The position numbers and the translations under genes are program-made. The notes beneath the pieces are model-generated. The model was not told the DNA's origin. It saw only the letters and a program-made list of their open reading frames with translations, and did not search any database. Source: a phage. From it: DNA of 46,345 nt. The stretch lies in sequence record LC918680.1; one strand, given 5' to 3'. How positions within the stretch are numbered: the stretch's first letter is position 1; each line of letters starts with the position of its first letter. Positions 1 through 44,155 of this stretch are shown piece after piece.

Positions 1-1620
1 ATGCTTCACAACTGGATTCTTAATTGTCGTGATGGTTGGATTGGTGAAATTATGGCTAATTTAGTTTGGGAGGAAATGACGCCAGCAGAAAAGATGGCGG
101 TTAAGGCGATATCCACTCATAGCTTCGAGGGATTCTTGCGGGTGTGGTTCCAGCTAACTCAGGGAGAGCGGTACATTCCAAACTGGCATCATAAATACCT
201 TTGCAGAATCATTGACGAGATTATAGCAGGTGAGCGCAAGGACACTATCATTAACATAGCACCAGGTAGCGGAAAAACAGAGATAGCCTCAATTCACTTC
301 CCAGCCTACTCAATGGTTAAGTTGAGAAAGGTAAGGAACCTGAATATATCGTATGCTGACTCACTGGTTAAGCGTAACTCCAAGCGTGTGCGCGACTTAA
401 TTAAGTCTGTTGAGTTCCAGGAGTTGTTCCCATGTAAGTTTGGTACGTGTAAGGATGATGAGCTACAGGTCCTGGATGACTATGGCAAGGTCAGGTTTGA
501 GTCAATCTCTAAAGCCACTGGCGGCCAAATTACAGGCGCAAGGGGTGGATATATAACCGATTCGTATAGTGGTGCGGTACTGTTAGATGATTTTGACAAA
601 CCAGCCGACATGCTTTCTGCTGTTTTTCGCGCTAACAATCACGTGATGCTAAAGAATACAATACGCTCTCGTAGGGCGAGCTCCGTAAAAGGAAAGGCGA
701 CGCCGATTATCTCTATCCAACAGCGCCTTCATGTGAACGATAGTACGTGGTTCATGATGAATGGCGGTATGGGTATTAGCTTCGACTTGATTAAGATACC
801 GGCGCTCGTAACTGAGGATTACGTCGACACGCTTCCTGACTGGGTTAAGCAGCAATTCATTGATGACGTTCTATCAAGCGAATATATTGAGCGTGATGGT
901 GTTAGGTACTATAGCTATTTCCCTGGCAAGGAATCTGTTCACGACCTAATTGCAATGTGGGATTCTGATAGCTATACATTCCTTAGCCAGTATCAGCAAG
1001 AACCAGTAGCACTTGGCGGCAACCTGATTAACGTAGACTGGCTTCAACGCATTAGCGACACTCTGCGACCGCCAGCTAAGTACGATTACAGGTTTATGGT
1101 CCTTGATACTGCGATGACAACCAAAAGTTACAGCGACTTTAGCGTCATGCAGCTATGGGGTTATAAGGATGGGAAGATTTATCTGCTTGACCAGCGACGC
1201 GGTAAATTTGAAGCTCCTGAGCTCGAGGCTGAGTTATTGGATTTCGAGAAGATGGCTAGGGCATCCAATCAGATAGATGGCATCCTTCGTAAAATCATCA
1301 TCGAGAAGAAAGCCTCTGGTATTGGCCTGATTCAATCAGCCGGAAGGGTTATGCGAACGCCTATCGAGCCGTACGTGCCAGATAACGATAAGCTGACTCG
1401 CGTAATGAGTGCATTACCGCAGATTAAAGCTGGTAACGTAATCCTTCCGGAGTCTGCTACTTGGCTTAATGGCTTGCTAACGGAGATTGCGGCATTCACG
1501 GCAGATGATTCACATGTTCACGATGACCAGATAGACTGTTTGACAATGGCTGTCAACCTGGTACTGAACATTGCAGAAGACCCTAAATCGAGGATGATGC
1601 GCCTCGCTGGCATCAAATAG
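1..1620 (+). CDS. terL: terminase large subunit (start at window edge; may be 5'-truncated)
   Basis: 539-aa ORF; Walker A-like IAPGSGKT, Walker B-like VLLDDFD, C-terminal acidic nuclease-type residues (VLDTA, DDQIDC); heads the structural module. Confidence 0.85.
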   Translation: MLHNWILNCRDGWIGEIMANLVWEEMTPAEKMAVKAISTHSFEGFLRVWFQLTQGERYIPNWHHKYLCRIIDEIIAGERKDTIINIAPGSGKTEIASIHFPAYSMVKLRKVRNLNISYADSLVKRNSKRVRDLIKSVEFQELFPCKFGTCKDDELQVLDDYGKVRFESISKATGGQITGARGGYITDSYSGAVLLDDFDKPADMLSAVFRANNHVMLKNTIRSRRASSVKGKATPIISIQQRLHVNDSTWFMMNGGMGISFDLIKIPALVTEDYVDTLPDWVKQQFIDDVLSSEYIERDGVRYYSYFPGKESVHDLIAMWDSDSYTFLSQYQQEPVALGGNLINVDWLQRISDTLRPPAKYDYRFMVLDTAMTTKSYSDFSVMQLWGYKDGKIYLLDQRRGKFEAPELEAELLDFEKMARASNQIDGILRKIIIEKKASGIGLIQSAGRVMRTPIEPYVPDNDKLTRVMSALPQIKAGNVILPESATWLNGLLTEIAAFTADDSHVHDDQIDCLTMAVNLVLNIAEDPKSRMMRLAGIK

Positions 1621-1632
1621 CACGTTTTGCTA
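1618..1632 (+). promoter_or_regulatory. boundary motif TAGCAC-N3-TTGCTA, copy 1
   Basis: TAGCACGTTTTGCTA; first 3 nt are the terL stop codon. Confidence 0.6.
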
Positions 1633-1689
1633 AAGACGCTCCGCCAAGGATGGCTTATAGTTACTTCACGCAAACGAGAGGAGTAAAAA

Positions 1690-2043
1690 ATGAAAGCAGT
1701 ATTTAAAGGGTATAAAAAAGATGGTTATTTTAAGTTTACCGTTGGTAAGATTTATGACTTATCAAGAACGCCTGGAAGTAATAATGAATACGTCAAAGTT
1801 AAGGATGATAAAGGCTATTTTGGCGTAATTAATCTTAGTGTTTATGATTTCGAAGTTATAGAGCCTACCGATTTTGTCGTTAAAGGTGATAATTTTAAAG
1901 TTGAAAAGGCTGGGATTAAATACTTCATCAACAAAAACATAGTAACTAAAGAGGCATTTTATGAAGTCAGAAGGGAGGTTCGCCAGTTAACACTTAATGG
2001 AGTGAAAACATCATCAATCAAGTTCGAAGTAAAATTCGAGTAA
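1690..2043 (+). CDS. hypothetical protein (AT-rich moron between terL and portal)
   Basis: ATG with SD GAGAGGAG upstream; boundary motif upstream and hairpin+T-run downstream; Lys/Tyr-rich, no recognisable motifs. Confidence 0.55.
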   Translation: MKAVFKGYKKDGYFKFTVGKIYDLSRTPGSNNEYVKVKDDKGYFGVINLSVYDFEVIEPTDFVVKGDNFKVEKAGIKYFINKNIVTKEAFYEVRREVRQLTLNGVKTSSIKFEVKFE

Positions 2044-2065
2044 CCATAAAAGCTATGCTAAACTA

Positions 2066-2089
2066 AGCCCCTAAATTGGGCTTTTTATT
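2066..2089 (+). terminator. intrinsic terminator candidate
   Basis: AGCCC-CTAAATT-GGGCT + TTTTTATT. Confidence 0.5.
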
Positions 2090-2101
2090 GGAGCAAATAA
2101 A

Positions 2102-3373: not shown

Positions 3374-3393
3374 TAAAGGTGAGGAGGATTGGG

Positions 3394-8778: not shown

Positions 8779-8781
8779 TGA

Positions 8782-8796
8782 TAGCACTTTTTGTTA
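8782..8796 (+). promoter_or_regulatory. boundary motif copy 2
   Basis: TAGCACTTTTTGTTA after major-tail terminator. Confidence 0.5.
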
Positions 8797-8857
8797 AAGA
8801 CCAAATCGCGGATTGCTGTATAGTTCATTCATCGAAACGAAATGAGATATTAGTGAA

Positions 8858-9106
8858 ATGAACAACGTTAAAAACATCATCAAACTTGCTGCTGCTCTTG
8901 GTGCTTTCTACCTGGCAATTCAGATTGTTAACCCAACTGGTGGCGAAACCGCAAACTCTGATGCAATAAAGTATGAACATGAATTTAATAGTGCATATTC
9001 TCATTGTGAAAAAGTAGCTGGCGATAAGACAAATCAGATTCTGCATTATGGTCGCGAGGTGTGCACCGAAGTTGCTCACAACATTGTAAAAAACGAATCA
9101 AAGTAA
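8858..9106 (+). CDS. small secreted/membrane protein (moron in tail module)
   Basis: N-terminal hydrophobic segment IIKLAAALGAFYLAIQIV; AT-rich; preceded by terminator, boundary motif and conserved CATCGAAACGAAA leader. Confidence 0.55.
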   Translation: MNNVKNIIKLAAALGAFYLAIQIVNPTGGETANSDAIKYEHEFNSAYSHCEKVAGDKTNQILHYGREVCTEVAHNIVKNESK

Positions 9107-9807: not shown

Positions 9808-12789
9808 ATGGCAACTAACGAAATTGCTGGTATCACGCTAGCCGTCGACGTAGCTCAGGTCGATAAGGGTACGCAATCCTTACAGAAATTCAGGCAAGCA
9901 AACGAGCAAGCTGCAACAGGCATTAATAGCTTCGTCAACGCCGAACTTGTAGCCAAGACTCAAGCAAGGGACACTGCAAGGCAGCTTGAGGAGCAGCGCA
10001 AATCTTTCGCATCACTTCAGCAAGCCATAGACCCAACCGCTGCTAAATTCCTGAAGTTGCAGAAAGCAGCAACAGATTTGGACAAAGCATTTGAATCCGG
10101 GATAGTTCCTGATGATGAATTCTTCAGGCTTGGCTCTGTTATTGAAACTCAAATCAATAAGCTAAACAGGTCTAAAGCCGCTCTTAGCGAAGAAGGCAGG
10201 GCTGCACTACAGGCATCAATAGATAAAGAGAAAGCAACAACAGCAGCGCAAAAGTTCATTCAATCTCTTGAGAACGAGGCGAATGCAGCAAGCCTGACAA
10301 GGACTGAACTTCTTCAGCTTAAGGCTGCTCAGCTAGGAGTTAGTGACCAGGCTGCACCGATTATCGACAGGATTGGAAAGGCTGCCGAGGCATCTGCGGT
10401 ACAATTGCAGAAGCAAAGCTCCGCTTTTGTTAAGTCTGGGCTTAGTGCCGGTCAATACAAGCAAGCAATTCGACAGCTTCCAGCGCAGATTACAGATATC
10501 GTTACATCTCTTGCTAGCGGCATGCCAATCTGGCTTGTAGCAGTCCAGCAGGGCGGTCAGATTAAGGATAGTTTTGGTGGTATCGGCAATACAGCAAGGT
10601 TTGCACTGGCAGCCATTAACCCATTAACGGCGGTTGTTGGGACTCTGGGTCTGGCTCTTGGGGCCTTGGGTATTGCTGCTTATCAGGCTGATAGGAGAGC
10701 ACGAGAGCTAGCAGCAACAATAACGCTGGTTGGAAACTCAACAATCACATCAACAGGGCAAATAAACCAGGTTGTTGATAGCATTGAGAGTTCCACGCTA
10801 GCCACGCGCGGACTCATCCAAGAGATAGCGAATAGTCTTGTAGCAAACGGTAATCTAACGCTTACGCAGATAGATAAGATAACCAAAGCAACTGCTCAGT
10901 GGGCAACTGTTACATCAACGGATTCAAAAACTATACTTGGGTACTTTGACAAGATCACAAAAGACCCGGTTAAAGGCCTTGCTGAGCTTGATAAGCAATT
11001 TAACTTCCTTCAGTCCGGACAGTTAAAACACATAGAGAACTTGAGGAAGACAGCAGGAGAGACAGAAGCTGTAACGGCAGCTACTGAGCTATTCGCTAAC
11101 GTTATGGAGAATAGGCTGGAAGATGTTGCGCTAAGCCTTAACCCCCTTGAAAGTGCATGGAATAGCTTCAGAAAGTTTGTAAGCGACATTTGGGATAGAA
11201 TCGGCAAGCGCACACTTGGTGCTCTTAACTTAATAACTGACGTTGTTGCTGGTACGATTGAGCAGATAAGGTCGTTTATAAACTCAGGCGACATTCTTCT
11301 TGGTGAATTTGCTATCGCTGCAACCAAGACGCTTCAGTCAATACCGGGGCTTGGTGATGTAGGTAACGGCATAATTGCTGAGCAGCAAAAGGTTGTCGAT
11401 GCAGCCAAGAAGCAAAACGAGGAGTTAGCAAAAAGCATCGCTGAGCGAGATGCTAGGATCAGAAAGGGAGAGATGGGATATGTTAAGGAAAACAGCGATA
11501 TCAACCTAACTGGCAACAAACCATCAACAGATAAGGAATTTGCAGCAAGAAGGAAGGCGCTAGCTGATGAGCTTGATGGGATAAAGAAAGCGAGGAGTGA
11601 GAGGAACAAGGCAGTAAAAGAAGAAAGGGATTTAACCTTATCTTATGAATCTGGCGTTCTTGCACTTCAGGCTCAGCTAAAGGTTTTACAAGAGCACAGG
11701 ACGATAAACGATGTAATAAGTAACGAACGCAAGCAGCTATTCCAGGAGGAAGCTAAGTTTGCAATACTTGAGCAAAGGAAAGCGGATGGTGCGCTTACAA
11801 AATCACAGGCTAAGCTACTTGCGCAGAAGAATATCATTCTTGAACAGGCTAAACAGAAGGCTGAACTTGGTGACCAGATTGTGCTTCAGGAGAGGTCAAA
11901 CAAGTTACTTGATGACAACCTTAAGAAGACAATACAGATTACCAATGAGGCGAAGAATGTTTCACTTGCTGCGGGTCTATCCGAAAGGGAGCGGCAAAGG
12001 GCAGGAGAACTTAAGGCGCTAGAGTCCAATCAGGTAAACAAGGGTGGCTCTGTAGATGATGTTGATTTCCAGAATCTGCTGGAAGCAAGAAAAGAATACT
12101 ACAGGCAGGAAGATAACCTAAGGTCAGACTGGCAAGCTGGTGTAACTTCAACGCTTGCTGACTTAACTGAGAAGTACACTGACTTCAACCAAATTGCTAA
12201 GGATTTGACTGTCGCAGCTTTTGATGGAATTACCGACCAGATTACAAACCTTGTAACCACTGGAGAAACTAATTTCAGGGAGTTCACGGCAAACATACTG
12301 AAAATGATTGCGAAAATTGCAACTCAGCTACTTTTGGTAAAGGCTATTGAATCTACAATTAAGAGCTTTGGTGGTGACACTGGAGCAGGTAGTGCCTTTG
12401 AGTCAATAAAGTCAGCAATTGGCTTTGCTGGTGGCGGCTACACTGGAGACGGCGGGAAGTATCAACCTGCTGGAACTGTGCACCGCGGTGAGTTTGTATT
12501 CACAAAAGAAGCTACAAGCAGGATTGGCGTTAAGAACCTGTACAAGCTAATGCGAGGTTATGCAAATGGCGGCGCTGTTGGTGGGCCCTCTGGCTATGCT
12601 AATGGTGGAGTTGTTGGTGGCACGAATGTCAGTGTTGGCGGCGTGACGGTTAACGTAAACTCTGGAATTGGTGGCGGAAATGATGCTAAGGCGATAGAAT
12701 CTGGAGTTAAGGTTATCGTTGCTGAGGAAATCAGCAAGTCATTCCAGCAGGGCGGAAGAGCCTTTGCTTATCTGAGGGGTTACAACTAA
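9808..12789 (+). CDS. tail tape measure protein
   Basis: 993-aa ORF, coiled-coil-rich, Gly-rich C-terminal region, follows G/GT chaperone pair. Confidence 0.9.
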   Translation: MATNEIAGITLAVDVAQVDKGTQSLQKFRQANEQAATGINSFVNAELVAKTQARDTARQLEEQRKSFASLQQAIDPTAAKFLKLQKAATDLDKAFESGIVPDDEFFRLGSVIETQINKLNRSKAALSEEGRAALQASIDKEKATTAAQKFIQSLENEANAASLTRTELLQLKAAQLGVSDQAAPIIDRIGKAAEASAVQLQKQSSAFVKSGLSAGQYKQAIRQLPAQITDIVTSLASGMPIWLVAVQQGGQIKDSFGGIGNTARFALAAINPLTAVVGTLGLALGALGIAAYQADRRARELAATITLVGNSTITSTGQINQVVDSIESSTLATRGLIQEIANSLVANGNLTLTQIDKITKATAQWATVTSTDSKTILGYFDKITKDPVKGLAELDKQFNFLQSGQLKHIENLRKTAGETEAVTAATELFANVMENRLEDVALSLNPLESAWNSFRKFVSDIWDRIGKRTLGALNLITDVVAGTIEQIRSFINSGDILLGEFAIAATKTLQSIPGLGDVGNGIIAEQQKVVDAAKKQNEELAKSIAERDARIRKGEMGYVKENSDINLTGNKPSTDKEFAARRKALADELDGIKKARSERNKAVKEERDLTLSYESGVLALQAQLKVLQEHRTINDVISNERKQLFQEEAKFAILEQRKADGALTKSQAKLLAQKNIILEQAKQKAELGDQIVLQERSNKLLDDNLKKTIQITNEAKNVSLAAGLSERERQRAGELKALESNQVNKGGSVDDVDFQNLLEARKEYYRQEDNLRSDWQAGVTSTLADLTEKYTDFNQIAKDLTVAAFDGITDQITNLVTTGETNFREFTANILKMIAKIATQLLLVKAIESTIKSFGGDTGAGSAFESIKSAIGFAGGGYTGDGGKYQPAGTVHRGEFVFTKEATSRIGVKNLYKLMRGYANGGAVGGPSGYANGGVVGGTNVSVGGVTVNVNSGIGGGNDAKAIESGVKVIVAEEISKSFQQGGRAFAYLRGYN

Positions 12790-20002: not shown

Positions 20003-20168
20003 AAAATCTCCTTAGAAGCCGTTAAAGTTTGAGGCAAGCAGCAGAACCCACACTAAGAAACCAGTTACAGAAGCACCCGCAAAAGTTGAAATTAAGTTAG
20101 TAGTTAATCTCTTGTTTAGGTTGTTTCGTTTCGATGTGGTAATCATAAACCATCATTAAGCTTTGTCT

Positions 20169-20858
20169 TTAGCTATTAGTGCTATTTGCAATAAACACAG
20201 CCTTTGCAAAACCGCGAGGAGTTAGGCTGCGGATTACCTTTGTCTTCTTGCTCTTTCCACCTAACTTCTTGTATTGGTCAGAGAATCCATCGTTAACGCC
20301 CACCGGAATCGCCTTAGGCCATTTAAACCCATTACCAAACCAAATGCATGTCTTCTTAGGATATGCGTCTCTTGGCTTTATTAGGTCGCTAAAAAACGGG
20401 TGTAAATCATCTTCCGGCAAATAGCCTCCGTATTCATATGGGTGGAAAGTCTTATTAGGCTTTCTCCAGAGTGATGACAGTACGCTGATTGGATTCTCAA
20501 TCATGTATGGGACTTCGTACTTATTAGCCAAGTTAAAAGCAACTTTACATGTTTCCGCAGCTTCAATCTGGAAGTTATGGTTAACCAGTCGCTTTCGCTC
20601 AAAGTGCCTTGACCCGCTCACGGCTAAATCCGTACACGGCGGGAACGCTAAAATGATATCAGGCTTCACATCAAAGTCGAAGTCGGCATCTATCCAGACA
20701 TTAACGTAGGTGATGTTCTCATGTCCAAATTTTGCATTTAAATCCACGTAACTACCGTGGTCAGACTCATCAAAGTTGAAACAGTAGCACTCGTGACCAG
20801 CCTCAGCCCAATCTTTCACAGCCAGCCCTGAACCATCAAATAAAGACCAAACAACCAT
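20169..20858 (-). CDS. putative DNA methyltransferase with C5-cytosine MTase-like motifs
   Basis: Motif I-like FDGSGL, Pro-Cys FPPCTDLAVSG, ENV-like IENP; start placed at internal ATG 20858 preceded by conserved ACGAGAGAGG leader (track start 20900 has no RBS); unusually short (229 aa). Confidence 0.5.
   Translation of the reverse strand: MVVWSLFDGSGLAVKDWAEAGHECYCFNFDESDHGSYVDLNAKFGHENITYVNVWIDADFDFDVKPDIILAFPPCTDLAVSGSRHFERKRLVNHNFQIEAAETCKVAFNLANKYEVPYMIENPISVLSSLWRKPNKTFHPYEYGGYLPEDDLHPFFSDLIKPRDAYPKKTCIWFGNGFKWPKAIPVGVNDGFSDQYKKLGGKSKKTKVIRSLTPRGFAKAVFIANSTNS
20170..20184 (-). promoter_or_regulatory. boundary motif copy 3
   Basis: - strand TAGCACTAATAGCTA overlapping MTase stop. Confidence 0.5.
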
Positions 20859-20900
20859 TTTGAAATCCTCTCTCGTTTTTTTGTGTGACCAACTATACAT

Positions 20901-21399
20901 GGTTTTGCGGATTAGTTTTAGCTATTCGTGCTGTTGGTTACGCGTAACCGATGTAACTCTATGTATACCATATGCATCAGCGGGAAATCGTATACGCCTA
21001 ATTACGCTTTGATACGCCATAGTTACATTAAAATATATATATATATCAACCTTTTACTCTTATTATTATTATTATATATATTACTGTGTATATCATGTAA
21101 CTACTGTCATGGAGCGTTCCGGTTATAATTTTTATATCATGTGATTTTATACAGTATTTCGCTGCACCTATACCTATGCACCATCCGCTAAAATTGGTAT
21201 ACACGATATACGCACCATTTACATTGAGCTATAGCTGGGCTCAGGCAGTGAAAAACGTAACCAATAGAAATGTCTACACGTAGTTACGGATTTATACGCG
21301 TATACTTGATTAATTAATCGGCGATACCAATTGGACTGTGTGTCTTGCGTGCGGCATCATTAACGCATCGAAAGCAAACAGCCACAGAGAGATAGAGAA
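20901..21399. repeat. control region A: gene-free AT-rich divergent intergenic region, paralogous to region B
   Basis: Shares with region B the blocks TATATATATCAACCTTTTACT, (ATT)n-TATATATA microsatellite and AGCTATAGCTGGGCT...CGTAACCAAT; contains palindromes GGTTACGCGTAACC (20936-20949) and TATACGCGTATA (21293-21304). Confidence 0.7.
20919..20933 (-). promoter_or_regulatory. boundary motif copy 4 (degenerate)
   Basis: - strand CAGCACGAATAGCTA upstream of MTase leader. Confidence 0.4.
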
Positions 21400-21585: not shown

Positions 21586-21589
21586 AATC

Positions 21590-21787: not shown

Positions 21788-22759
21788 ATGACATTTAAAG
21801 TTTATACGAACGACGAGCTAACAAATGAATCCTATCACGAAGAGCAAGACCATATCTCTGGCTCTTCACTGGCTGAGATTCTTGCTACCTCACCAGCTAA
21901 ATGGAAGTTTAAGCAGCGCAATAACTCTAGCGCAGCACTTAAGTTTGGCACACTAAGTCACTGCATGATGCTAGAGCGCGAGGTGTTTGACTCAACATAC
22001 ATGCGAGCTACTGACTTTGACGAAGTGGAAGGATTGATTACTAGCCAAACGGCTTTATCCGCAGCGCTTAAAAAAGTTGGAGTTTCAGGCACGTCAGGGA
22101 AGGGTTATAACGAGCTTGTAGAGATGATGTATAAGTGTGGTGAGGATTGGCCTGTTAAATGGTTAATTGAGCAGCAGGAGAGCGCTCATGCGCTAATTAG
22201 TGGCAAAGAGCTCGTTACTGCGAAAGATTACGATAAAGTAATTCAAATGCGAGAGGTTCTAACTAATATTCCGGCATATGATTCGGTCATTAATTCACCA
22301 TCAGCGCAGAAAGAACTATCAATATTTGGTGAGATTCTCGGTTGTGGTGTTAAGGTTCGTCTTGACCATGTGGATGTTGTTGATGGTATTGTCTACATTA
22401 CTGACTACAAAACCACAGCAGATGCAAGTCCTAGAGGATTTGGGAAGTCAGCTTATGACCATGGATACCTGTGCAAGATGGCACTTCAGCGAGATCTGTT
22501 TGTGAAAGCCTTTAATGAGAAACGCAAGGTTGTAGTTCGCCTTTTGGCACAGGAGAAAGCAGAGCCTTACTTACCTATGTGCTACACGCTTACGGATGAG
22601 CAGCTTCGCATTGGGCGCTTACAATATTTAGAGGCTCTGGCTGTTTACAAGCAGTGCAAGGAACTTGATGTGTGGCCTGGGTATAGCAATGGGATTACAG
22701 AGCAAGATTTGATGATTCCTGAGTGGGTAAGTAAGCAGTATCAAGAACTTCTAAAATAG
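21788..22759 (+). CDS. PD-(D/E)xK family exonuclease (recombination exonuclease)
   Basis: VRLDHVDVVDGIVYITDYKT gives D...D-x-K nuclease motif; adjacent to Erf-like and SSB genes. Confidence 0.7.
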   Translation: MTFKVYTNDELTNESYHEEQDHISGSSLAEILATSPAKWKFKQRNNSSAALKFGTLSHCMMLEREVFDSTYMRATDFDEVEGLITSQTALSAALKKVGVSGTSGKGYNELVEMMYKCGEDWPVKWLIEQQESAHALISGKELVTAKDYDKVIQMREVLTNIPAYDSVINSPSAQKELSIFGEILGCGVKVRLDHVDVVDGIVYITDYKTTADASPRGFGKSAYDHGYLCKMALQRDLFVKAFNEKRKVVVRLLAQEKAEPYLPMCYTLTDEQLRIGRLQYLEALAVYKQCKELDVWPGYSNGITEQDLMIPEWVSKQYQELLK

Positions 22760-22771
22760 CACTAATTGCTA
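22757..22771 (+). promoter_or_regulatory. boundary motif copy 5
   Basis: TAGCACTAATTGCTA; starts at exonuclease stop TAG. Confidence 0.6.
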
Positions 22772-22829
22772 AAGACAAAATTAACAGGTGGGGTATCATT
22801 ACCCCATCGAAACGAAAGAGAGATGGGGA

Positions 22830-23960: not shown

Positions 23961-23984
23961 AAAGCCCCTTTCGGGGCTTTTTTA
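23961..23984. terminator. bidirectional intrinsic terminator between convergent ssb and tail-fibre genes
   Basis: A-run + GCCCC-TTTC-GGGGC + T-run. Confidence 0.8.
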
Positions 23985-26538: not shown

Positions 26539-26553
26539 TAGCACTAATTGCCA
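26539..26553 (+). promoter_or_regulatory. boundary motif copy 6
   Basis: TAGCACTAATTGCCA between tail fibre and primase genes. Confidence 0.45.
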
Positions 26554-26580
26554 AAATTCATTCTACCATCTTTCAGGCAA

Positions 26581-26602: not shown

Positions 26603-27525
26603 TAGTTTAGCAAGTCGTTTGCTTTGTACACTTTCTTTCGTATGCCTGTTTTAAATGACTCACCGTCATTAGGAACTACAACATCAACACCCCTATCGTC
26701 AGCAACAGCGAGTATATCGCTATCAGAATCACGGCAAGCAATTCTGAACTTCCTTGACTTGTCGCGGTGGATAACCATCTCCATATTGTAACAGGAGAAA
26801 GCAACAAACACTTCGCGCCCACCAGTAGCAAGGTGAACACGTATGCCATCAATATAATTGTCAACAACATAAGTATAACTATCATCCTGCTTAGAACCAA
26901 TAACGGAAACAGAATCACGAGTGTAATCACCAGCAAGGAACTTAACATTTGAATCCTCATCAATAAACATTACGTTACAGAACTCATCACTAAGCCCATC
27001 TTCATAAACCATCGAACAAGGGATTGCGTGAATCATTGAACCATTTTTAGCTATACCAACATCAAAACCAAACTCGTCATAAATACCCTCGTATGTCGTG
27101 AGTGGACTAGATTCAACTCGCTGAGTCCTCTCCATGACCTCAAGAACTTTCTTGTGGTCTACTTGAGCGCCCATTTTATAACGCAGCGTTCTTGATGCTT
27201 GCTTGTTAGCTTTAACTATAACCTCAATTGGTGTTAAGTTCAGCCAGTCACCAAGCAAATTTACTGAATCGGCGAAGGACAATCCAGTGCACTTCATGAC
27301 CCACCCTATACCGGAGTCACTTCCGCATTTCGAACAAATTGCCGCGCCATTTCCTTTTTCACTGCCTATTTCGTCGGTAAATCTGAATCTGTCAGTGCCA
27401 AAGCAGTATGGGCATGGTCCGTGCTTCTTACTTAGGTGTCTATCATTCCAACCAAGTTCCTTTGCATAAAATGATTTCCACAATCCGGCCATCTTAGGTA
27501 TAACTTCATTCTTATCGTAATTCAT
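26602..27525 (-). CDS. DNA primase (zinc-binding + Toprim-like)
   Basis: CPYC...CSKC zinc-ribbon near N-terminus, acidic D-rich C-terminal region. Confidence 0.7.
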   Translation of the reverse strand: MNYDKNEVIPKMAGLWKSFYAKELGWNDRHLSKKHGPCPYCFGTDRFRFTDEIGSEKGNGAAICSKCGSDSGIGWVMKCTGLSFADSVNLLGDWLNLTPIEVIVKANKQASRTLRYKMGAQVDHKKVLEVMERTQRVESSPLTTYEGIYDEFGFDVGIAKNGSMIHAIPCSMVYEDGLSDEFCNVMFIDEDSNVKFLAGDYTRDSVSVIGSKQDDSYTYVVDNYIDGIRVHLATGGREVFVAFSCYNMEMVIHRDKSRKFRIACRDSDSDILAVADDRGVDVVVPNDGESFKTGIRKKVYKANDLLN

Positions 27526-27881
27526 TTGCTTAAACCGTGATTTTCGTGAAAGTTGTATTTTCTCTCTGCTTCAATTCTTACTTTATACGCCTGCTCTGGA
27601 GTATCTAAGTTACCAAGGTGTAGCTGCTTGCCGTCAACCTTGATGTAAGCCTTAAATTTTCCGTGATTTAGCTTTGCCACTCCACAATAACCAGTTGTTG
27701 ATAAAACGCTAAGCTTGCAATTTCTTGAGTTACCTTGATTTGTTGTTACTCTTAGGTTTTCTATTCTGTTATCTAATTTGTTATGGTTTATATGATCAAT
27801 GTAGTCGCCATTTTGAAGTTCTCCATTAAACATCTCCCACACAACTCTATGTACATAAGTCCTAAAGCCATTAACAGACAC
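27522..27881 (-). CDS. HNH homing endonuclease with AP2-type DNA-binding domain
   Basis: HNH motif DHINHNKLDNRIENLRVTT followed by AP2-like GYCGV...FKAYI segment. Confidence 0.8.
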   Translation of the reverse strand: MSVNGFRTYVHRVVWEMFNGELQNGDYIDHINHNKLDNRIENLRVTTNQGNSRNCKLSVLSTTGYCGVAKLNHGKFKAYIKVDGKQLHLGNLDTPEQAYKVRIEAERKYNFHENHGLSK

Positions 27882-28052: not shown

Positions 28053-28526
28053 TTAATCTTTAGCTTTTCGTGCTGCTTCGTTGGCAATCTTATTCTTGCG
28101 CCATGGTCGACATGGTGGCTTTGTTGCTAGTTCAGCTTCGGTAACAACCCGCAGCATATGGCGTTTCTTGCATCTAAGCGTTAATGGCTTACCGTTTCCG
28201 TCGAATTGCAGGTCTGGTCGGCAGAACGTAGCTCTAAAGCCTTCCTTATTTCGCTTGTATGCATTGTGAGCCCTCTGGGCACCTCGAGCCGAAATCATCC
28301 CGCGATCAAACCATTGCTCTACAGTCTGGTGAGATACATTTAACTGCTTGGCGATATTGGCCTTCGTGCCGTAGAAATCAAGAACCATCTCCAGACGAGC
28401 TCGTAGCCCAGCCTTTACTTCATCTTTCAATACGTAGTAGCCTGACGGTCGTTTGCGCTGTTTCTTGTCTTGCGTGCGGATGGTTCCGTTATTGCCGTTG
28501 ATAGTTCGCTTGTCAATTTCACACAT
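28053..28526 (-). CDS. basic HTH DNA-binding protein
   Basis: HTH-like IAKQLNVSHQTVEQWF; highly basic termini. Confidence 0.45.
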   Translation of the reverse strand: MCEIDKRTINGNNGTIRTQDKKQRKRPSGYYVLKDEVKAGLRARLEMVLDFYGTKANIAKQLNVSHQTVEQWFDRGMISARGAQRAHNAYKRNKEGFRATFCRPDLQFDGNGKPLTLRCKKRHMLRVVTEAELATKPPCRPWRKNKIANEAARKAKD

Positions 28527-28539
28527 CTCATTACCTCAA

Positions 28540-37407: not shown

Positions 37408-38991
37408 TTACCCCAGCAATAGTGGATTAATGTAAATTTTATCACCAATCAGGCATGTGTAGTTTTTCTCATCAAGCATAGGAATCAAGTGGTCCTTAAT
37501 GCGAGTCATAATTCCAGCCTGAGCTTCAAAAGGTTTAACCTTGCGTGCAGCCTCATACAACGAGCGAACACCAACAACACCTTTACCATTCTTGCCCTGC
37601 TTAATCAGGATATCAACCAGCTTGTTCATCTCGGCATTGTCACCAGCATGACCAGCAGCACTAGCGGATGATAAATAAGTCTTGCTTAGTTCGTTGAAAA
37701 TCATAACCGCTTCCTGCATTGTATCCAGTTCAATCTCTCTTGACTTTTGAGGGCTGGATCCGGCTGGTGAGAACCAGTTACGAATTACGTGCAGAACAGA
37801 AGCGATGCGGATTGCTTGCTTATCAAACTTACCAAGAGCACCGCGCAACATTGTGTGAGAATACTTGCCACCATCACCAAGATGAGGCTCCATCTCTTGA
37901 CGAGCGCGGTTAAGGTAACGCATTGATGACGCGCTTACAGTAAGTTTCACTTCAACTTCATTCATAATCTCATGAACAAGACGGAAATAGTCTGCTTTCA
38001 GGCCGTCATCAATAGCCTCATAGGTTGAATCACCATTTTCATCAACAAATACACGTTCGCCAAGAAATGATTTTTCACGCACCAGAAGGAAACGCTCAGA
38101 TACACCAATACCACGCGCACCAGCATTCATAATGGCATTGATTGTTTCATCCTGAGCAATTACGGAGATGCATCCCATAGCCACAAAGCTCATGTTATTT
38201 TCTGCGTTCGCACGGGCAATTGACACATTACCTGCATCCCATGCTTTCAGCACGAGCTCGCTGTTCGTTTTCTTCGAGCCATCACCGTAAGTCATGCCTA
38301 ACAGTGAGTTGACGCTAGTAGCCTCATCAGAGATTACCGCAAAATTACCCTGGCGATTGTTGATTCGCGCAAGACCTTCCGGAGTAGTATCGGAGACAGG
38401 GAATACTATATCGCATAGCTTCTCGAGCTTCTCCTCTAAATCCTCCTTCTCCTCAAAAAGTGAAGCCATTTCAGAAGGTGATTTCTCCTGCTTCATCTCT
38501 TTAGCCAGAGCGGACAGTTTAGCCATAATCTTTTTTCGATCACGTTTACGTACTTCATTCAACCGCTCAGTCTCAGCAATCATCGGCGCAATTGATAGCG
38601 AGTTAATGGCTGATTTACCAGTTGAAGGCGGCTGACTTGTTACCACGTACAAAGATGTTGGCTGTTGGGTTCCATGATACTCGACAGTAAAACGCCCAAG
38701 CATTGCAGCAGAAACACAACCAAGAAAGTGCATGTAAACTGACGACTCAGGGAACTGAACCGAGCGAGCGATATTAGCCGATAGCTTACCAACAACATCA
38801 ATATCATTACCGAGTGAGATTACTGGATACTTATCATTACCTGTATCAATCTCGACAGGTGCTTTCCAGAACGATTGAGAATGTCGATAGCCATTGGCAT
38901 TAATAGCCACGCGAAGCGGTGGTAGGTTTTCATTGGCAGCGATTGCCATAACCTGCTCAACAGATAGTTTATCTTCGTTGAAATCAAACAT
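37408..38991 (-). CDS. P-loop NTPase (DUF3987-like), putative replication-associated ATPase
   Basis: Walker A SQPPSTGKS and Walker B-like AVISDEAT; 527 aa; boundary motif and conserved leader upstream. Confidence 0.55.
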   Translation of the reverse strand: MFDFNEDKLSVEQVMAIAANENLPPLRVAINANGYRHSQSFWKAPVEIDTGNDKYPVISLGNDIDVVGKLSANIARSVQFPESSVYMHFLGCVSAAMLGRFTVEYHGTQQPTSLYVVTSQPPSTGKSAINSLSIAPMIAETERLNEVRKRDRKKIMAKLSALAKEMKQEKSPSEMASLFEEKEDLEEKLEKLCDIVFPVSDTTPEGLARINNRQGNFAVISDEATSVNSLLGMTYGDGSKKTNSELVLKAWDAGNVSIARANAENNMSFVAMGCISVIAQDETINAIMNAGARGIGVSERFLLVREKSFLGERVFVDENGDSTYEAIDDGLKADYFRLVHEIMNEVEVKLTVSASSMRYLNRARQEMEPHLGDGGKYSHTMLRGALGKFDKQAIRIASVLHVIRNWFSPAGSSPQKSREIELDTMQEAVMIFNELSKTYLSSASAAGHAGDNAEMNKLVDILIKQGKNGKGVVGVRSLYEAARKVKPFEAQAGIMTRIKDHLIPMLDEKNYTCLIGDKIYINPLLLG

Positions 38992-39048
38992 TACTTCTCT
39001 CCGTGTTGTTATGAGCGGCCATTATATCAATAGCCGCTTATAATGCAT

Positions 39049-39063
39049 TATCAATTAGTGCTA
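39049..39063 (-). promoter_or_regulatory. boundary motif copy 11
   Basis: - strand TAGCACTAATTGATA upstream of DUF3987-like gene. Confidence 0.5.
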
Positions 39064-39221
39064 TTTAGTAAGATGCAATCTATCTTGTAGTAGTCAAAGT
39101 GATTTTCTGAAGATATTTCTTTGTTATATTTAAACTCCTGTGCTTTGAATTCTTCATCGAAAGCGGCAATCACTTCGCTTCCATCATAGTGTGTGCAACC
39201 ACTTACAATGTATAATTTCAT
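39051..39221 (-). CDS. hypothetical small protein
   Basis: 56-aa ORF, start overlaps upstream stop (ATGA); C-terminus LNSTN encoded by boundary motif; below track cutoff. Confidence 0.4.
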   Translation of the reverse strand: MKLYIVSGCTHYDGSEVIAAFDEEFKAQEFKYNKEISSENHFDYYKIDCILLNSTN

Positions 39222-39607
39222 TTGTATTGAGCCTCAAAGTGGTAAGTTTCACACAACGTATAAAAGCCAACATCTTCGCTGCGATATAGCTGCCAGGCGT
39301 TGCCATCTTCATCGTAAATGTATCCAGCTGACTGACCAAGTCCGCTATGCATGTTGACCTGGTATCGCTTACCTTCTTTGAAGTCTTTCTTAACGCCAGA
39401 CTTATGGTTAACCTTTGTGCAGTAAAGAGTTTTGGTTTTAATGTATTTTCCACGTTCTTCCAGGTTGATCCATTTGCCGTCTTTTTTGATTTGCTCAAAT
39501 TCAACTTCCTCAGCGACACCGTTAACCCACTGGTGAATCTTTTTAACGCGAGCTTTAAATAGCTTGTTGTCGTTGCTAATGAAATTTTTGGTTATCGTAG
39601 TAGTCAT
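39218..39607 (-). CDS. hypothetical protein
   Basis: 129-aa Lys-rich ORF. Confidence 0.5.
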   Translation of the reverse strand: MTTTITKNFISNDNKLFKARVKKIHQWVNGVAEEVEFEQIKKDGKWINLEERGKYIKTKTLYCTKVNHKSGVKKDFKEGKRYQVNMHSGLGQSAGYIYDEDGNAWQLYRSEDVGFYTLCETYHFEAQYK

Positions 39608-39768
39608 TATTTTAATCTCTTAGTTGTCAACATGAATTTGTTTGGTACTGATTTGCGCACAATACGCACAACAATCTTATCAAACTTCTGAACTAAACCG
39701 TAAATCTTACCATCTAGCGACGCCCTGAGAACCGCCTCTTCCATCTCGTCATAAAAGTTGTCGAACAT
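39607..39768 (-). CDS. hypothetical small protein
   Basis: Start placed at ATG 39768 after conserved CATCGAAACGAAAGAGAG leader (track start 39834 is TTG within the motif). Confidence 0.4.
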   Translation of the reverse strand: MFDNFYDEMEEAVLRASLDGKIYGLVQKFDKIVVRIVRKSVPNKFMLTTKRLK

Positions 39769-39827
39769 GATCTCTTGCTCTCTTTCGTTTCGATGGAGTA
39801 AATATACGCCATCCGTGGCGGTGAGTT

Positions 39828-39992
39828 TTAGCAATTAGTGCTATTTTTTCTGGCCTTCTCAATTGCCTTCAACATAATCTCGTGAGACTCAAGCAGGTCC
39901 TCGTTAAACCAGTCCCCGCAAGGCCAACCCTTTCCGCTGTAAGCACTTATGACTTCCAGATCGAAATAGTTTATCTCAGATGGTAAAAGCAT
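39828..39992 (-). CDS. hypothetical small protein
   Basis: 54-aa ORF; C-terminus KNSTNC encoded by boundary motif; start overlaps upstream stop; below track cutoff. Confidence 0.4.
   Translation of the reverse strand: MLLPSEINYFDLEVISAYSGKGWPCGDWFNEDLLESHEIMLKAIEKARKNSTNC
39829..39843 (-). promoter_or_regulatory. boundary motif copy 12
   Basis: - strand TAGCACTAATTGCTA perfect 6-3-6. Confidence 0.6.
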
Positions 39993-40195
39993 TATTCAAT
40001 CACCTTAAAAGTTGCGATGCCGTGGATGATTACGTAATCAAGGCATTTAAGCGCCTGGAACGTGTCGTGATGCTTGTGTGGACGTTCGCCGGTAACAAGG
40101 CACATATCATTTTTAAACTCGGTAGCGTTGTATTCAGAGCCCTTATTGAAGGCATCGTTAAAGTCTTTAATTACGTTCGTGCATAATAGTTTCAT
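39992..40195 (-). CDS. hypothetical protein
   Basis: 67-aa ORF. Confidence 0.5.
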   Translation of the reverse strand: MKLLCTNVIKDFNDAFNKGSEYNATEFKNDMCLVTGERPHKHHDTFQALKCLDYVIIHGIATFKVIE

Positions 40196-40380: not shown

Positions 40381-40436
40381 ATATCCCTCCTCGTTGTTGA
40401 TGAGCGAACTATAACTCCGCAATACCTAAATGTCTT

Positions 40437-40450
40437 TAGCAAAAAGTGCT
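40437..40450 (-). promoter_or_regulatory. boundary motif copy 13 (spacer variant)
   Basis: - strand TAGCACTTTTGCTA at edge of control region B. Confidence 0.4.
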
Positions 40451-41053
40451 ATTAGTTGGATTTATTTATTGTTGCAGATATTGCAATGATTAATCTTACT
40501 ATTGCACATATAACAATATTGCATCGAATGCAATGATGTTTTTGATTGTTGCGGGATTTGCAATGATTGATGTGAGGGTGAATGAATGGTGAATGAACTA
40601 CCATACAAGTTGATTTTGATTCTTGCTGAGCCAATTTGGATATACACGTTATCGAAGTTATGGTGTGTATATGAGGTGCGCTTCCGAAGAATCATACACG
40701 CCTACCACGCTAGATTACGCAATGGTTACATAATAATATCTATATATATCAACCTTTTACTATATTATTATTATTATTATATATATGTATGTATATGGTG
40801 TAGATTGGTCGTATGGATGGGTCGATAGTTTTTCTATGAAAACTACTAATTTTATCTATATAGATACATATGCATACCCCCGGCGAATCCGCGTAAAATA
40901 TTACACAGGGTAATTACACCAGCTATAGCTGGGCTGAGAGGTCAAAAAGCGTAACCAATGCAGATATAAACACAACATAACACTTGATAACGCGTATATT
41001 CATGATACCATGGTTTCATCTTAACGAAGAGCAACCAATCAGGAGTAACGAAT
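40451..41053. repeat. control region B: gene-free AT-rich divergent intergenic region, paralogous to region A; iteron-like TGCAATGAT repeats
   Basis: Same conserved blocks as region A at about 40741-40790 and 40920-40975; three TGCAATGAT copies plus further TTGCA half-sites at about 40470-40570; coordinates +/-2. Confidence 0.7.
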
Positions 41054-41575: not shown

Positions 41576-41678
41576 TGGGTATGGTAGTAGACTACCATAC
41601 CATCAGCGGTACAGTGAGGATGAGGTTGAGGTGGCTATGGATTTATATCGGAAAGCTAAATTACTACTGATTGGGAAA

Positions 41679-41694
41679 TAGCACTTTTTGCCTA
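41679..41694 (+). promoter_or_regulatory. boundary motif copy 14 (degenerate)
   Basis: TAGCACTTTTTGCCTA. Confidence 0.4.
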
Positions 41695-41753
41695 ACGATA
41701 TGACGCCAAGGATGGCATAATTACCTCATCAGATAAAGAGTGGAGATAGAGAC

Positions 41754-41864
41754 ATGAATAAAGAAACCAAGCAGCACCCATCAAGTAATCATCATTGCGA
41801 ACACATTATGCAATACTACCGAAACAACCTGAAGACCAAAGGCGTATTCGGTAAAGTTAAATGA
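41754..41864 (+). CDS. hypothetical small protein
   Basis: 36-aa His/Cys-containing ORF between two boundary motifs. Confidence 0.35.
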
Positions 41865-41870
41865 GATAAA

Positions 41871-41885
41871 TAGCACAAATTGTTA
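41871..41885 (+). promoter_or_regulatory. boundary motif copy 15
   Basis: TAGCACAAATTGTTA. Confidence 0.5.
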
Positions 41886-41945
41886 AACCTTCCGCAAGGC
41901 CATTTGATATAGTGGCCTTATTAAAGCAAAGCAAGAGAGGGTGGG

Positions 41946-42724: not shown

Positions 42725-42725
42725 A

Positions 42726-42740
42726 TAGCACGAATTGCTA
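42726..42740 (+). promoter_or_regulatory. boundary motif copy 16
   Basis: TAGCACGAATTGCTA directly after stop TAA. Confidence 0.6.
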
Positions 42741-42799
42741 AACATGAATTGGGATAGGTTGTTATACTTATCCCATCAAAACGAGATGAGGAATTGACG

Positions 42800-42979: not shown

Positions 42980-42989
42980 GGTTTATAAA

Positions 42990-43412
42990 ATGAAATTAAG
43001 CAAATCTCAAAGGGAAGAGTTGAAGGGCAAGTTCGGTGGTCGCTGCGCTTATTGTGGGTGTGAACTACCTGAGAAAGGCTGGCATGCTGACCATGTTGAA
43101 CCGGTGCTACGTAAATCTGAGGTATGCATGAAGGCAGCGGAGAAAGGAACTTTCAAGCTGAAGGCGACAGGTGAGTTTAATCGACCACAAGCTGATCGAA
43201 TGGAAAACCTTTACCCTGCATGTGCTCCATGCAACCTCATGAAAGCTTGCTATTCCCTTGAAATGTTCAGGGAACAGGTGTCTCTTCAAGTCGCTCGCGG
43301 GCGTAAGAGCAGCATGAATTTTCGCACGGCAGAGCGGTTCGGCCTCATCTCCATAGTGGAGGATCCAGTTGTTTTCTGGTTTGAGAAGTTTGAGCAAATT
43401 AACAAAATCTGA
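42990..43412 (+). CDS. HNH endonuclease (free-standing)
   Basis: CAYCG...HADHVEP...CAPCNLMK gives Cys-x2-Cys / H-x-D-H / Cys-x2-Cys-N HNH architecture. Confidence 0.75.
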   Translation: MKLSKSQREELKGKFGGRCAYCGCELPEKGWHADHVEPVLRKSEVCMKAAEKGTFKLKATGEFNRPQADRMENLYPACAPCNLMKACYSLEMFREQVSLQVARGRKSSMNFRTAERFGLISIVEDPVVFWFEKFEQINKI

Positions 43413-43575
43413 GGATAGAGAAATGAATACTTGGTTAATGATGGATGAAGTTCTGGTTGAAGTATTGCCATGGTTACTCTGGTTATTGGGCTTCATGATT
43501 ATTTACATTATTTCAGCAGCCGTAGATGACGCTAAAAGCGATTCTAACGAACTATAATTTAAGTGAGGTGATTGC

Positions 43576-43737
43576 ATGATTAAGATCGTATACATTGGTC
43601 AGGATGATTATATGGCGCGCTTAAAGCATGGCGACGTATTCTATGCAGAGCCTAGCGAAGATGGAAATGGGTACTTCATTAAAAACAAGCACGATGAGGA
43701 GCTTTACATAGCAAACCACGAGGCTCTTGTTTACTAA
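43576..43737 (+). CDS. hypothetical small protein
   Basis: 53-aa ORF with SD GTGAGGTG upstream; coordinates +/-1. Confidence 0.4.
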   Translation: MIKIVYIGQDDYMARLKHGDVFYAEPSEDGNGYFIKNKHDEELYIANHEALVY

Positions 43738-43868
43738 TGGATAACTACGAAACACCAAGCCAGTGGGCTAAACGGATGCAGGAAGAAGCAAAGAACGGAG
43801 AAGAGGCGATGGCTTACTACGAGCTGGCGCAAATTTGGATGGATCGGGAGAAAAAGAGCAATGGTTAA
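43737..43868 (+). CDS. hypothetical small protein
   Basis: 43-aa ORF start-overlapping upstream stop. Confidence 0.4.
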   Translation: MDNYETPSQWAKRMQEEAKNGEEAMAYYELAQIWMDREKKSNG

Positions 43869-43921
43869 CACTTGCATTTATTTTTATGTCAATGAGTTTA
43901 TTGATGACTTAATGTATTTTA

Positions 43922-44143
43922 ATGAAAAGTATGGTGACACATTCGAGTGTGACGGCGACAACCTTGAGGTACTATCAACATTCAATAGAGGTGAAAAGAA
44001 TGAGCTTCACTGAATATGTTATCGCATGTGAACGACTGGTCTTTGATATGAAGACTTTTCACTGGTTCATAATTAAGGATTTAATCAAGCCTTACAAGCA
44101 AGGAGTAACACCTGAGACGTTTGTTAAGTCATTCTATAAATAG
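43922..44143 (+). CDS. hypothetical protein
   Basis: 73-aa ORF; stop TAG is the first 3 nt of a boundary motif. Confidence 0.45.
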   Translation: MKSMVTHSSVTATTLRYYQHSIEVKRMSFTEYVIACERLVFDMKTFHWFIIKDLIKPYKQGVTPETFVKSFYK

Positions 44144-44155
44144 CACGAATTGCTA
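44141..44155 (+). promoter_or_regulatory. boundary motif copy 17
   Basis: TAGCACGAATTGCTA; starts at upstream stop TAG. Confidence 0.6.

Follow-up and report, generated by a model that had tools for sequence, protein, structure and literature searches.

LC918680.1 is a sequence record of 46,345 nucleotides (nt) from a phage, and this whole stretch, called the window below, carries between its genes a short repeat of the form TAGCAC-N3-TTGCTA. Judged by its sequence, the repeat is a match to the marbox, the binding site of the monomeric AraC-family proteins MarA, SoxS, and Rob, and it is sited where it would replace the −35 element of a promoter. With the segments that follow it, the repeat forms units of ~75 bp, which are probably promoter–terminator cassettes resembling the promoter-stem-loop (PeSL) cassettes of T4-type phages, with the −35 element replaced by a consensus class II marbox that activators of the MarA/SoxS/Rob type would read. 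The marbox match and its position in place of the −35 together suggest that the phage probably borrows host regulators to turn on about 17 gene cassettes.

By sequence comparison, the window is the genome of a T1-like virulent siphophage of the Drexlerviridae (Braunvirinae). Positions 20000–44000 are 92.7% identical to Escherichia phages AN_ECEAS and ES, and more distant matches of the same segment are phiA2-1, Rtp, and T1, all Drexlerviridae. How transcription is organised in T1-like phages has been unresolved since the genomes of T1, Rtp, and TLS were read, and no transcription-start or transcriptome data for these phages were found in our literature search. They have neither a polymerase gene nor a sigma gene, hardly any promoters that can be recognised as sigma70 ones, and a conserved repeat whose role is unsettled. 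The repeat as such has already been published: in the 2024 re-annotation of phage TLS, 21 copies of aaATAGCACnnnTTGnTAAAA are listed, 18 of them intergenic, which run in the same direction as transcription and lie ~76 nt before start codons (German, Kropinski, Misra et al. 2024, PMC11447400). The same paper notes that T1, Rtp, and Rogue1 have similar repeats, counts just three intergenic promoters in TLS that are sigma70-like, and leaves the role of the repeat open, naming L5-like stoperators, enhancer sites, and UP elements as options (PMC11447400). The repeat in the window is the TLS-type element in a new genome, sharing with the TLS ‘direct repeats’ the 21-nt sequence, the intergenic location, the orientation with transcription, the distance of ~76 nt to the start codon, and the N3 classes GAA, TAA, AAA, and TTT; T1 and Rtp were scanned directly and agree. 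In contrast, the −10 element at 22 bp, the marbox identity with its class II geometry, the hairpin, and the occurrence outside Drexlerviridae are absent from the TLS paper and are new here.

The motif TAGCACNNNTTGCTA has nine exact matches in the window, against 0.01 expected from shuffled sequences, and 15 matches with at most one mismatch, against 0.33 expected. A first-pass annotation, made from the letters alone, had listed at least 17 copies of a motif–hairpin–leader element; a whole-unit profile of ~75 bp, built from the copies aligned with their flanks, recovers 17 full units (E values from 3e-14 to 6e-5) and two motif-only sites, at 26539–26553 (+) and 33247–33261 (−), with close to none expected by chance. 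The placement at gene boundaries holds as well. The stop codon of the upstream gene is supplied by the motif's own TAG in four units and by the TAA of TTGCTAA in three, and in several further units it lies a few bases away. From the start of the motif to the downstream start codon, the distance is 68–83 nt in 15 units and 102 nt in one, and no start codon was found within 160 nt of the remaining unit at 20170 (−), which is Unit 3 below. The units are conserved in relatives, with about 18–20 each in T1 and Rtp.

The motif had at first been read as a palindrome, but the element is only superficially palindromic, and the extended motif, A-TAGCAC-nWW-TTGYTAAA, is asymmetric. Symmetry was scored in 55 sites at flanking and spacer positions that had no part in site selection. 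A stands at offset −1 in 53 of these sites, at offset 15 in 54, and at offset 16 in 48, and W stands at offsets 7 and 8 in 54 and 55, respectively. The mirror pair −1/+15 is complementary in just 2% of sites, the AAA flanks on both sides are complementary in 2–16%, and the pair of offsets 5 and 9, at which C faces T, is complementary in 0%, so both the flanks and the conserved positions break the dyad.

A −10 element stands at a fixed distance on one side of the motif. In five phages, namely, the window, T1, Rtp, Vibrio phage Vc1, and Pantoea phage AAM37, 63 motif sites were found at one mismatch or fewer, and a −10 hexamer (at least four of six matches, including A2 and T6) lies 21–23 bp past TTGCTA in 55 of them, most often at 22 bp, compared with 3 of 63 in the mirror orientation and ~6% at random positions. 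The logo of the unit reads aAATAGCACtAATTGcTAAAac ... G(−14)nTATaaT ... cA.cgaaA, and the 18-bp stretch from the marbox to the −10 is free of sequence constraint. The base 7 nt past the hexamer is A in 15 of the 17 window units, and we infer that transcription starts there, at the A of CATCGAAACGA. From this predicted +1 through the Shine–Dalgarno sequence, the leader CATCGAAACGA(A/G)AGAGG is conserved (1668–1689 in the window, for example), in agreement with the first-pass annotation. The leader is A/C-rich and unstructured; it is kept in the copies of the T4-type phages Lw1 and RB43 and is not conserved in AAM37. No usable −35 was found 16–18 bp from the −10, where the hexamers AAGACA and TAAACA are weak and unconserved, and the region shows no enrichment of sigma70 −35/−10 pairs (26 vs. 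29.6 expected; 35 vs. 31.7). Lacking a −35 and having a fixed −10 and a conserved upstream element, the units read as −35-less promoters with a conserved upstream element. The earlier statement that the motif is not part of a standard sigma70 promoter is thus borne out, the −10 being present without a −35 and the motif being the probable protein-recognition element of a nonstandard promoter. The spacing is 22 bp (21–23) rather than the earlier estimate of ~23 bp to an ATAATT-like element, and the hexamer itself is TATAAT-like; for a modified polymerase, which had been suggested as a reader, no evidence was found.

Such an arrangement may in principle be served by sigma70 RNA polymerase alone, with the −10, the conserved G(−14), and an A-tract-flanked element that acts as an UP element or as a displaced surrogate of the −35. 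The −10 hexamers are good, TTGCTA is like TTGACA, sibling promoters in Lw1 and RB43 share the −10 and the leader and have an ordinary −35 where the marbox would stand, and UP-like elements are among the options of the TLS authors (PMC11447400). Nevertheless, TTGCTA is rejected as a sigma70 −35, given that a spacer of 22 bp puts it 5 bp beyond what region 4 can reach; an UP element, whose reader is the alpha C-terminal domain, is A/T-rich at −40 to −60, whereas the invariant positions here include G and C at offsets 2, 3, 5, and 11; and a match at 15 positions to the site of a known activator has an estimated chance of roughly 2^−22 per alignment. An activator-free promoter is therefore unlikely. 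Other candidates fared no better. The sigma54 consensus is TGGCAC-N5-TTGCW, with GG and GC elements 10 bp apart and the start ~12 bp downstream; the motif has AG for GG, a gap of N3 rather than N5, and a sigma70-type −10 22 bp downstream. The T4 MotA box, the TTGC repeats of lambda CII, and the −24/−12 layout of sigma54 were rejected on spacing.

The marbox consensus 5′-gcannwwntgnnaaa-3′, that is GCANNWWNTGNNAAA (PMC12052159), has 12 exact matches in the window compared with 0.89 expected, and all 12 are sites of the repeat; the flanking and spacer positions scored above for symmetry conform to the marbox as well. When the units are set against the refined consensus GCAHWWWWTGYYAAA (PMC6900184), six show no mismatch and eight show one, so that 14 of the 17 are within one mismatch. 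The marbox of the mar operon itself is TTTAGCAAAACGTGG, with the reverse complement CCACGTTTTGCTAAA (PMC12052159 supplement), and the latter is identical at 14 of 15 positions to the 15-mer of Unit 1, GCACGTTTTGCTAAA. The marbox faces forward (GCAC-7N-AAA) in all 17 units, and its centre lies at −39.5 to −41.5 from the predicted start. With the classical 20-mer marbox, which is said to read AYNGCACNNWNNRYYAAAY according to Martin et al. 1999, the window gives 16 matches at one mismatch or fewer compared with 1.13 expected.

In class II marbox promoters, a forward marbox overlies the −35 with its centre between −36 and −55, and the marbox of fumC is listed at −39 (PMC12052159 and its supplement); at micF, RamA has its site at approximately −41, with CAC(T)-7N-AAA on the top strand. 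The units fit this class in consensus match, in having an asymmetric forward site with the −10 downstream (55 of 63 against 3 of 63 in mirror image), and, relative to the predicted starts, in overlapping a poor −35. With the class II promoters of the Escherichia coli mar/sox/rob regulon (micF, fumC, and lpxC P2), they share the consensus GCAHWWWWTGYYAAA as an asymmetric monomer site that points forward over the −35 position, with its centre near −40 and a −35 that is weak or absent. The host marboxes are degenerate and scattered, whereas the phage sites are near-perfect to consensus at 17 promoters within 46 kb of a lytic phage, and the phage units add extra invariant positions, a fused terminator-like hairpin, and a conserved leader. 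A literature search, from which most subscription journals were left out, turned up no paper that connects marboxes with phage promoters.

The apparent dyad had led the first-pass annotation to propose a dimeric phage regulator, for which it named the helix-turn-helix (HTH) protein encoded at 28053..28526 (−). This Cro-like protein, with a weak P22_Cro match and the family label phrog_2856, is the homologue of Rtp52 and T1 gp23, and in the Rtp genome, 10 conserved inverted repeats were reportedly ascribed to Rtp52 by Wietzorrek et al. in 2006. As its operator, the motif would bind a dimer at −42 that activates in the manner of lambda cI at PRM and represses where the site lies at or after +1. 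A number of observations speak for such an operator: the inner TAGCA-N5-TGCTA is a perfect dyad (5 + 5 bp) with a half-site spacing of 10 bp; among the promoters of the region, that of the HTH gene is the best of sigma70 type, and the leader of this gene contains a motif copy, which also lies at about −40 of the divergent helicase promoter; a backward copy at the +1 of the tail-fibre promoter is kept in Rtp and T1; and the protein is conserved in 831 phage records and is the only regulator-like protein common to the window and AAM37. What counts against it is the asymmetry of the conserved positions (offsets 5/9 and the AAA flanks, as above) and the strict orientation of the motif to the −10, together with recognition helices that differ among the phages compared, namely, window/T1, Vc1, and AAM37 (SHQTVEQW / SNQTVQGW / CCVRLTNA / PFSGVRSW), while the DNA motif stays invariant. 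Moreover, Lw1 and RB43 carry units with no homologue of the HTH protein (E > 1), the consensus is that of monomeric MarA/SoxS/Rob sites, and an activator that is itself expressed early cannot account for the firing of the first promoters. Because of the asymmetry, the differing recognition helix, and the Lw1/RB43 units, the HTH protein is not supported as the reader, and an operator of the Cro/cI type is improbable, if somewhat less so than the other alternatives. Phage activators offer a further comparison: lambda cI at PRM, Mu Mor/C, and phi29 p4 also act from sites near −42 at promoters that have no −35, with repressing copies elsewhere, but their sites are dyads for phage dimers, whereas the site in the window is asymmetric, fits a host-factor consensus, and occurs in phages that lack the candidate regulator.

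A phage that does have a MarA relative is AAM37 (Dibbivirus), a Pantoea myophage outside Drexlerviridae. Its gp49 (36758–37168) is a MarA-like protein of 136 amino acids (aa) with an HTH_18 match (E 1.8e-14), and its best matches in PDB are MarA (1bl0, E 1.4e-6), RamA, Rob, and SoxS. AAM37 carries units with the motif-22-(−10) layout, one of them directly after the stop codon of gp49. By analogy, T1-like phages could encode a MarA-like, or an equivalent monomeric two-HTH, activator of their own, too divergent for detection by sequence, that reads the marboxes as gp49 presumably does. The presence in AAM37 of units together with a MarA-like gene inside a unit-driven operon favours this, as do the many unannotated small open reading frames (ORFs) of the window, but 15 window proteins scanned against Pfam gave no AraC or HTH_18 match, and tblastn searches with AAM37 gp49, MarA, and SoxS found nothing in the window, T1, Rtp, Vc1, Lw1, and 132 loci. 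Two proteins flagged as HTH-like in the T1 annotation were modelled with AlphaFold, and neither gave significant support for a MarA-type fold. Both are conserved; the first (39218–39607, −; 129 aa) is predicted to be all-beta (pLDDT 85.9), and the second (37069–37404, −; 111 aa) has helices and a beta-hairpin in a winged-helix-like arrangement (pLDDT 83.5) with no significant PDB match. A home-made activator thus seems an unlikely answer. Given that units occur in T1-like phages that lack a detectable MarA-like gene, host factors of the MarA family are the most economical reading, and the constitutive Rob would be the most plausible of them.

On the host-activator reading, each unit would be a compact promoter–terminator cassette that fills the gap between two genes. 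It would begin with the 20-bp asymmetric marbox, which often provides the stop codon of the upstream gene, followed by the 18-bp unconstrained stretch, often with an RNA hairpin, then by G(−14) and the TATAAT-like −10, and finally by the start at the A of CATCGAAACGA and a short A/C-rich leader with a Shine–Dalgarno sequence. A monomeric activator of the MarA family, which would be host Rob, MarA, or SoxS in E. coli and RamA in Klebsiella or Salmonella, may bind the forward marbox with its centre at about −40.5, replace the missing −35 contact, and recruit sigma70 RNA polymerase as at micF and fumC. Rob is present in the cell before infection, so these promoters would fire without the help of any phage protein.

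A number of points weigh against this reading. The perfect inner dyad and the motif copy that adjoins the HTH gene have been mentioned, and the phage motif is tighter than the host consensus, with an invariant A at offset 1 and invariant T at offsets 9 and 13; this extra constraint could reflect a different or an additional reader. MarA and SoxS are scarce when there is no stress, and Rob, which is abundant, is held largely inactive when there are no inducers. RamA activates 2–4 fold, activation by the MarA family is typically modest, and it would be surprising if a fast lytic phage were built to rely on MarA, SoxS, and Rob alone. We know of no dependence of T1-like phages on rob, marA, or soxS. 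Vibrio phage Vc1 (Drexlerviridae), reported on Vibrio cholerae, has nine units with the leader variant CAACGAAAC, and these bear on the host-factor hypothesis by way of any MarA-family factor that V. cholerae may have.

Between marbox and leader, many units can form a hairpin. In 73 units of the five phages, the segment from the marbox to +1 was folded and compared with shuffles, giving a mean z of −2.6 and a z below −1.5 in 63%. Units 5, 8, 9, 10, 11, 12, 15, and 16 of the window have such hairpins; the hairpin between motif and leader described earlier is present in about half of the window units. The stem is found in one of two places, within the 18-bp spacer or around the −10, and half of the stems leave the −10 out. 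Of 44 strong hairpins, 37 are stabler on the sense strand and 6 on the antisense strand (p = 6e-6), and sense folds have more G–U pairs (41 vs. 24). A DNA cruciform at the −10 is disfavoured by the greater stability of the sense-strand hairpins and by the half that leave out the −10. The window has more terminator-like sites than expected (19 vs. 11.8; 17 vs. 9.1), and some T1 copies are annotated as rho-independent terminators. The 5′ arm of the hairpin precedes the start of the unit itself, so the hairpin can act only on transcripts that come from the upstream gene; on these it may serve as an attenuator, a terminator, or a 3′ stabiliser and insulate the cassettes from one another, as experiments showed for one T4-type PeSL stem-loop.

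A hairpin formed by the motif itself is a different matter. That UAGCA...UGCUA in the mRNA is the functional form, or that the sites are stoperator-like roadblocks at which a bound protein halts elongation from upstream, is very improbable. Both ideas agree with sites that are intergenic and oriented with transcription, as the TLS authors point out (PMC11447400), and TTGTTA variants keep a G–U pair in the RNA. A −10 at a fixed 22 bp and a conserved +1 are, however, unexpected for a roadblock, the virulent T1-like phages are not known to have a prophage repressor, and the putative 5-bp stem shows no compensatory changes and is broken by the variants TAGCTA, TTGATA, and TTGCCA.

The resemblance to PeSL cassettes, which the first-pass annotation had pointed out, is upheld. 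These cassettes were described in the T4-type phages RB49 and phi1, in which one PeSL stem-loop was shown to be a terminator and ORFans are shuffled when PeSLs recombine with one another (Arbiol et al. 2010, PMC2839356; Comeau et al. 2014, PMC4122927). The units share with them a stable stem-loop in the gap from the −35 to the −10 or over the −10 (with a predicted terminator role here), ORFan flanks, and a position at the boundaries of indels and replacements that set close relatives apart. They differ in the promoter: PeSL promoters have consensus sigma70 −35 and −10 elements with AT-rich sequence upstream, whereas the T1-type unit has no −35 at 16–18 bp and in its place a marbox 22 bp from the −10.

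The units are not confined to Drexlerviridae. The T4-type phages Lw1 and RB43 (Pseudotevenvirus) have five to six T1-type units that adjoin ORFans, at 9952–10913, 56163–56239, and 91903–92340 in Lw1 and at 757–2040 in RB43. Three of the Lw1 units contain an inserted full terminator, and their distance from the marbox to the −10 is 32–33 bp, one helical turn longer. A scan of viral contigs also found units in C130_2-like phages of 41.8 kb. Where homology between the window and its T1-like relatives breaks off, a unit is no more than 30 nt away in 9 of 22 cases for AN_ECEAS, 8 of 36 for phiA2-1, and 6 of 40 for Rtp, compared with 1.1–2.0 at random positions (1.1 for AN_ECEAS); the enrichment, which bears out the suspected link between synteny breaks and motif positions, is relative to random positions rather than to gene boundaries, so some of the signal is just an effect of gene boundaries, and this also tells against the cassette reading. 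In one exchange, positions 41730–41869, which begin at the predicted +1 of Unit 14 and reach the first base of Unit 15, are swapped in AN_ECEAS for its 39704–40162, with the cassette at 39733–40162. Both ORFs of this replacement are homologous to Lw1 gp017 and gp016, which stand behind a T1-type unit in Lw1, and an ORF of a T1-like contig shares 72% identity with Lw1 gp166. The conserved units of ~75 bp may thus serve as recombination points for swaps of ORFan cassettes within and between phage families, and the homologous ORFans that accompany units in T4-type, C130_2-like, and Dibbivirus phages would extend the PeSL idea across phage families.

That the T1-like family as a whole outsources the recognition of the −35 in early and middle expression to host MarA/SoxS/Rob (RamA in Klebsiella), and does so likewise on mobile ORFan cassettes traded with T4-type and other enterobacterial phages, is possible, although we hold it to be on balance somewhat doubtful. 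If true, phage expression would be wired to the mar/sox/rob state of the host, as set by salicylate, bile, paraquat, and antibiotics; consensus marboxes, present in dozens to thousands of copies on replicating phage DNA, could titrate the regulators off host resistance genes; and AAM37-like phages with a MarA homologue of their own would be the self-sufficient version of the design. The class II marbox reading is a testable hypothesis that would tie infection to the mar/sox/rob antibiotic-resistance regulon, with relevance to phage–antibiotic combinations.

Motif copies also stand in other positions. Upstream of the tail-fibre gene (23982–26516, −), the promoter at 26539..26568 (−) has an extended −10, TGgTAGAAT (26568–26560), and a backward motif follows directly at 26553–26539, from about +1 to +15. 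A like arrangement is found in Rtp (approximately 33763–33800, TGcTACAAT) and T1 (approximately 34903–34950, TTGCAA-17-TAAAAT), that is, in three phages of two subfamilies. A backward motif at the +1 is, in predicted terms, the geometry of an operator, and both this copy and the one in the leader of the HTH gene would act in repression. MarA-family repression has been reported from sites that overlap core promoters, such as that of pbpG (PMC12052159), and a phage protein could likewise repress at the tail-fibre site. The other motif-only site, 33247–33261 (−), is an exact copy that has no −10; it lies in the 3′ end of an ORF (33045–33296, +), and Rtp has a copy in the same place, at ~39141. 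The HTH gene is preceded by the best sigma70-like promoter of the region (28577..28604, −; TTGTTA-16-TATAAT), whose −10 (minus strand, TATAAT) overlaps the −10 of Unit 6 (plus strand, TATTAT) back to back at 28576–28582. Given this overlap, the two divergent promoters should compete for RNA polymerase, a possible switch.

As for the individual units, Unit 1 (1617..1689, +) has the marbox ATAGCACGTTTTGCTAAAGA at 1617–1636, the −10 TATAGT at 1656–1661, a predicted +1 at A 1668, and the ATG at 1690, and the TAG of its motif is the stop codon of the upstream ORF of 539 aa (terminase large subunit). Unit 2 (8781..8857, +) follows the gene for the major tail protein, with the marbox at 8781–8800, TATAGT at 8819–8824, a predicted +1 at ~8831, and the ATG at 8858. 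The next two are on the minus strand: Unit 3 (20120..20185) has its marbox at 20185–20166, TATGAT at 20147–20142, a predicted +1 at ~20135, and the next ORF start at 20002, and Unit 4 (20859..20934) has the degenerate marbox ACAGCACGAATAGCTAAAAC, TATAGT at 20897–20892, and the ATG of a methyltransferase-like ORF at 20858. Between the exonuclease VIII and Erf recombinase genes lies Unit 5 (22756..22829, +; TATCAT at 22794–22799; ATG at 22830), of which the motif TAG is the stop codon of the exonuclease gene and the hairpin GGUGGGGUAUCAUUACCCCAUC, around the −10, has a minimum free energy of −15.4 and a z of −4.9. Unit 6 (28539..28622, +; ATG at 28623) precedes the N-part of a helicase gene, and its marbox at 28539–28558 is at the same time approximately +16 to +30 of the divergent HTH-gene promoter.

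Unit 7 (29945..30047, +) lies within the 3′ end of a LAGLIDADG ORF and upstream of the helicase C-part (ATG at 30048). In Unit 8 (32175..32256, +), the motif TAG is the stop codon of a VRR-NUC gene, and the hairpin GAGUUGguguauugucAACUC is placed around the −10 (z −3.8). Two units have the hairpin in the spacer: Unit 9 (34511..34584, +), with a degenerate marbox, stands before the polynucleotide kinase gene and has GCCUCAAaggaUUGAGGC (z −5.9), and Unit 10 (35598..35672, +; −10 CATAAT; ATG at 35673) has GCCGGAguaaUCCGGC (z −4.6). On the minus strand, Unit 11 (38992..39064) precedes a DUF3987 gene of 527 aa (ATG at 38991), with GCGGCUAUUGAUAUAAUGGCCGC over its −10 TATAAT (z −5.0); Unit 12 (39769..39844; TATATT; ATG at 39768) precedes an ORFan of 53 aa that is absent from AN_ECEAS; and Unit 13 (40381..40452; TATAGT) has a GTG or ATG at ~40380. 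The last four are on the plus strand. Unit 14 (41678..41753; CATAAT; ATG at 41754) precedes an ORF of 36 aa, and homology to AN_ECEAS ends at its predicted +1, 41730; at Unit 15 (41870..41945), which has AAGGCCAuuugauauagUGGCCUU over the −10 (z −4.2), this homology is back from 41869. Unit 16 (42725..42799) has GGGAUAgguuguuauacUUAUCCC over the −10 TATACT (z −5.1), and in Unit 17 (44140..44213; TATAAT; ATG at 44214), the motif TAG is the stop codon of an upstream ORF of 73 aa.

The helicase gene behind Unit 6 looks split in the window (28623–31757), whereas Rtp and phiA2-1 have a single helicase of ~664 aa. The N-part ORF (28623–29432) has weak Intein_splicing/HINT matches at aa 172–241; it is followed by a LAGLIDADG endonuclease ORF in another frame (29261–30115) and by the C-part ORF (30048–31757), for which Unit 7 (29945–30047) would be a promoter of its own. 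Two HNH endonuclease genes were also seen, at 27522–27881 (−; HNH_3, E 2e-18) and at 42990–43412 (+; HNH, E 6e-5), and these likely encode homing endonucleases, whose insertion sites are not the ones seen in relatives.

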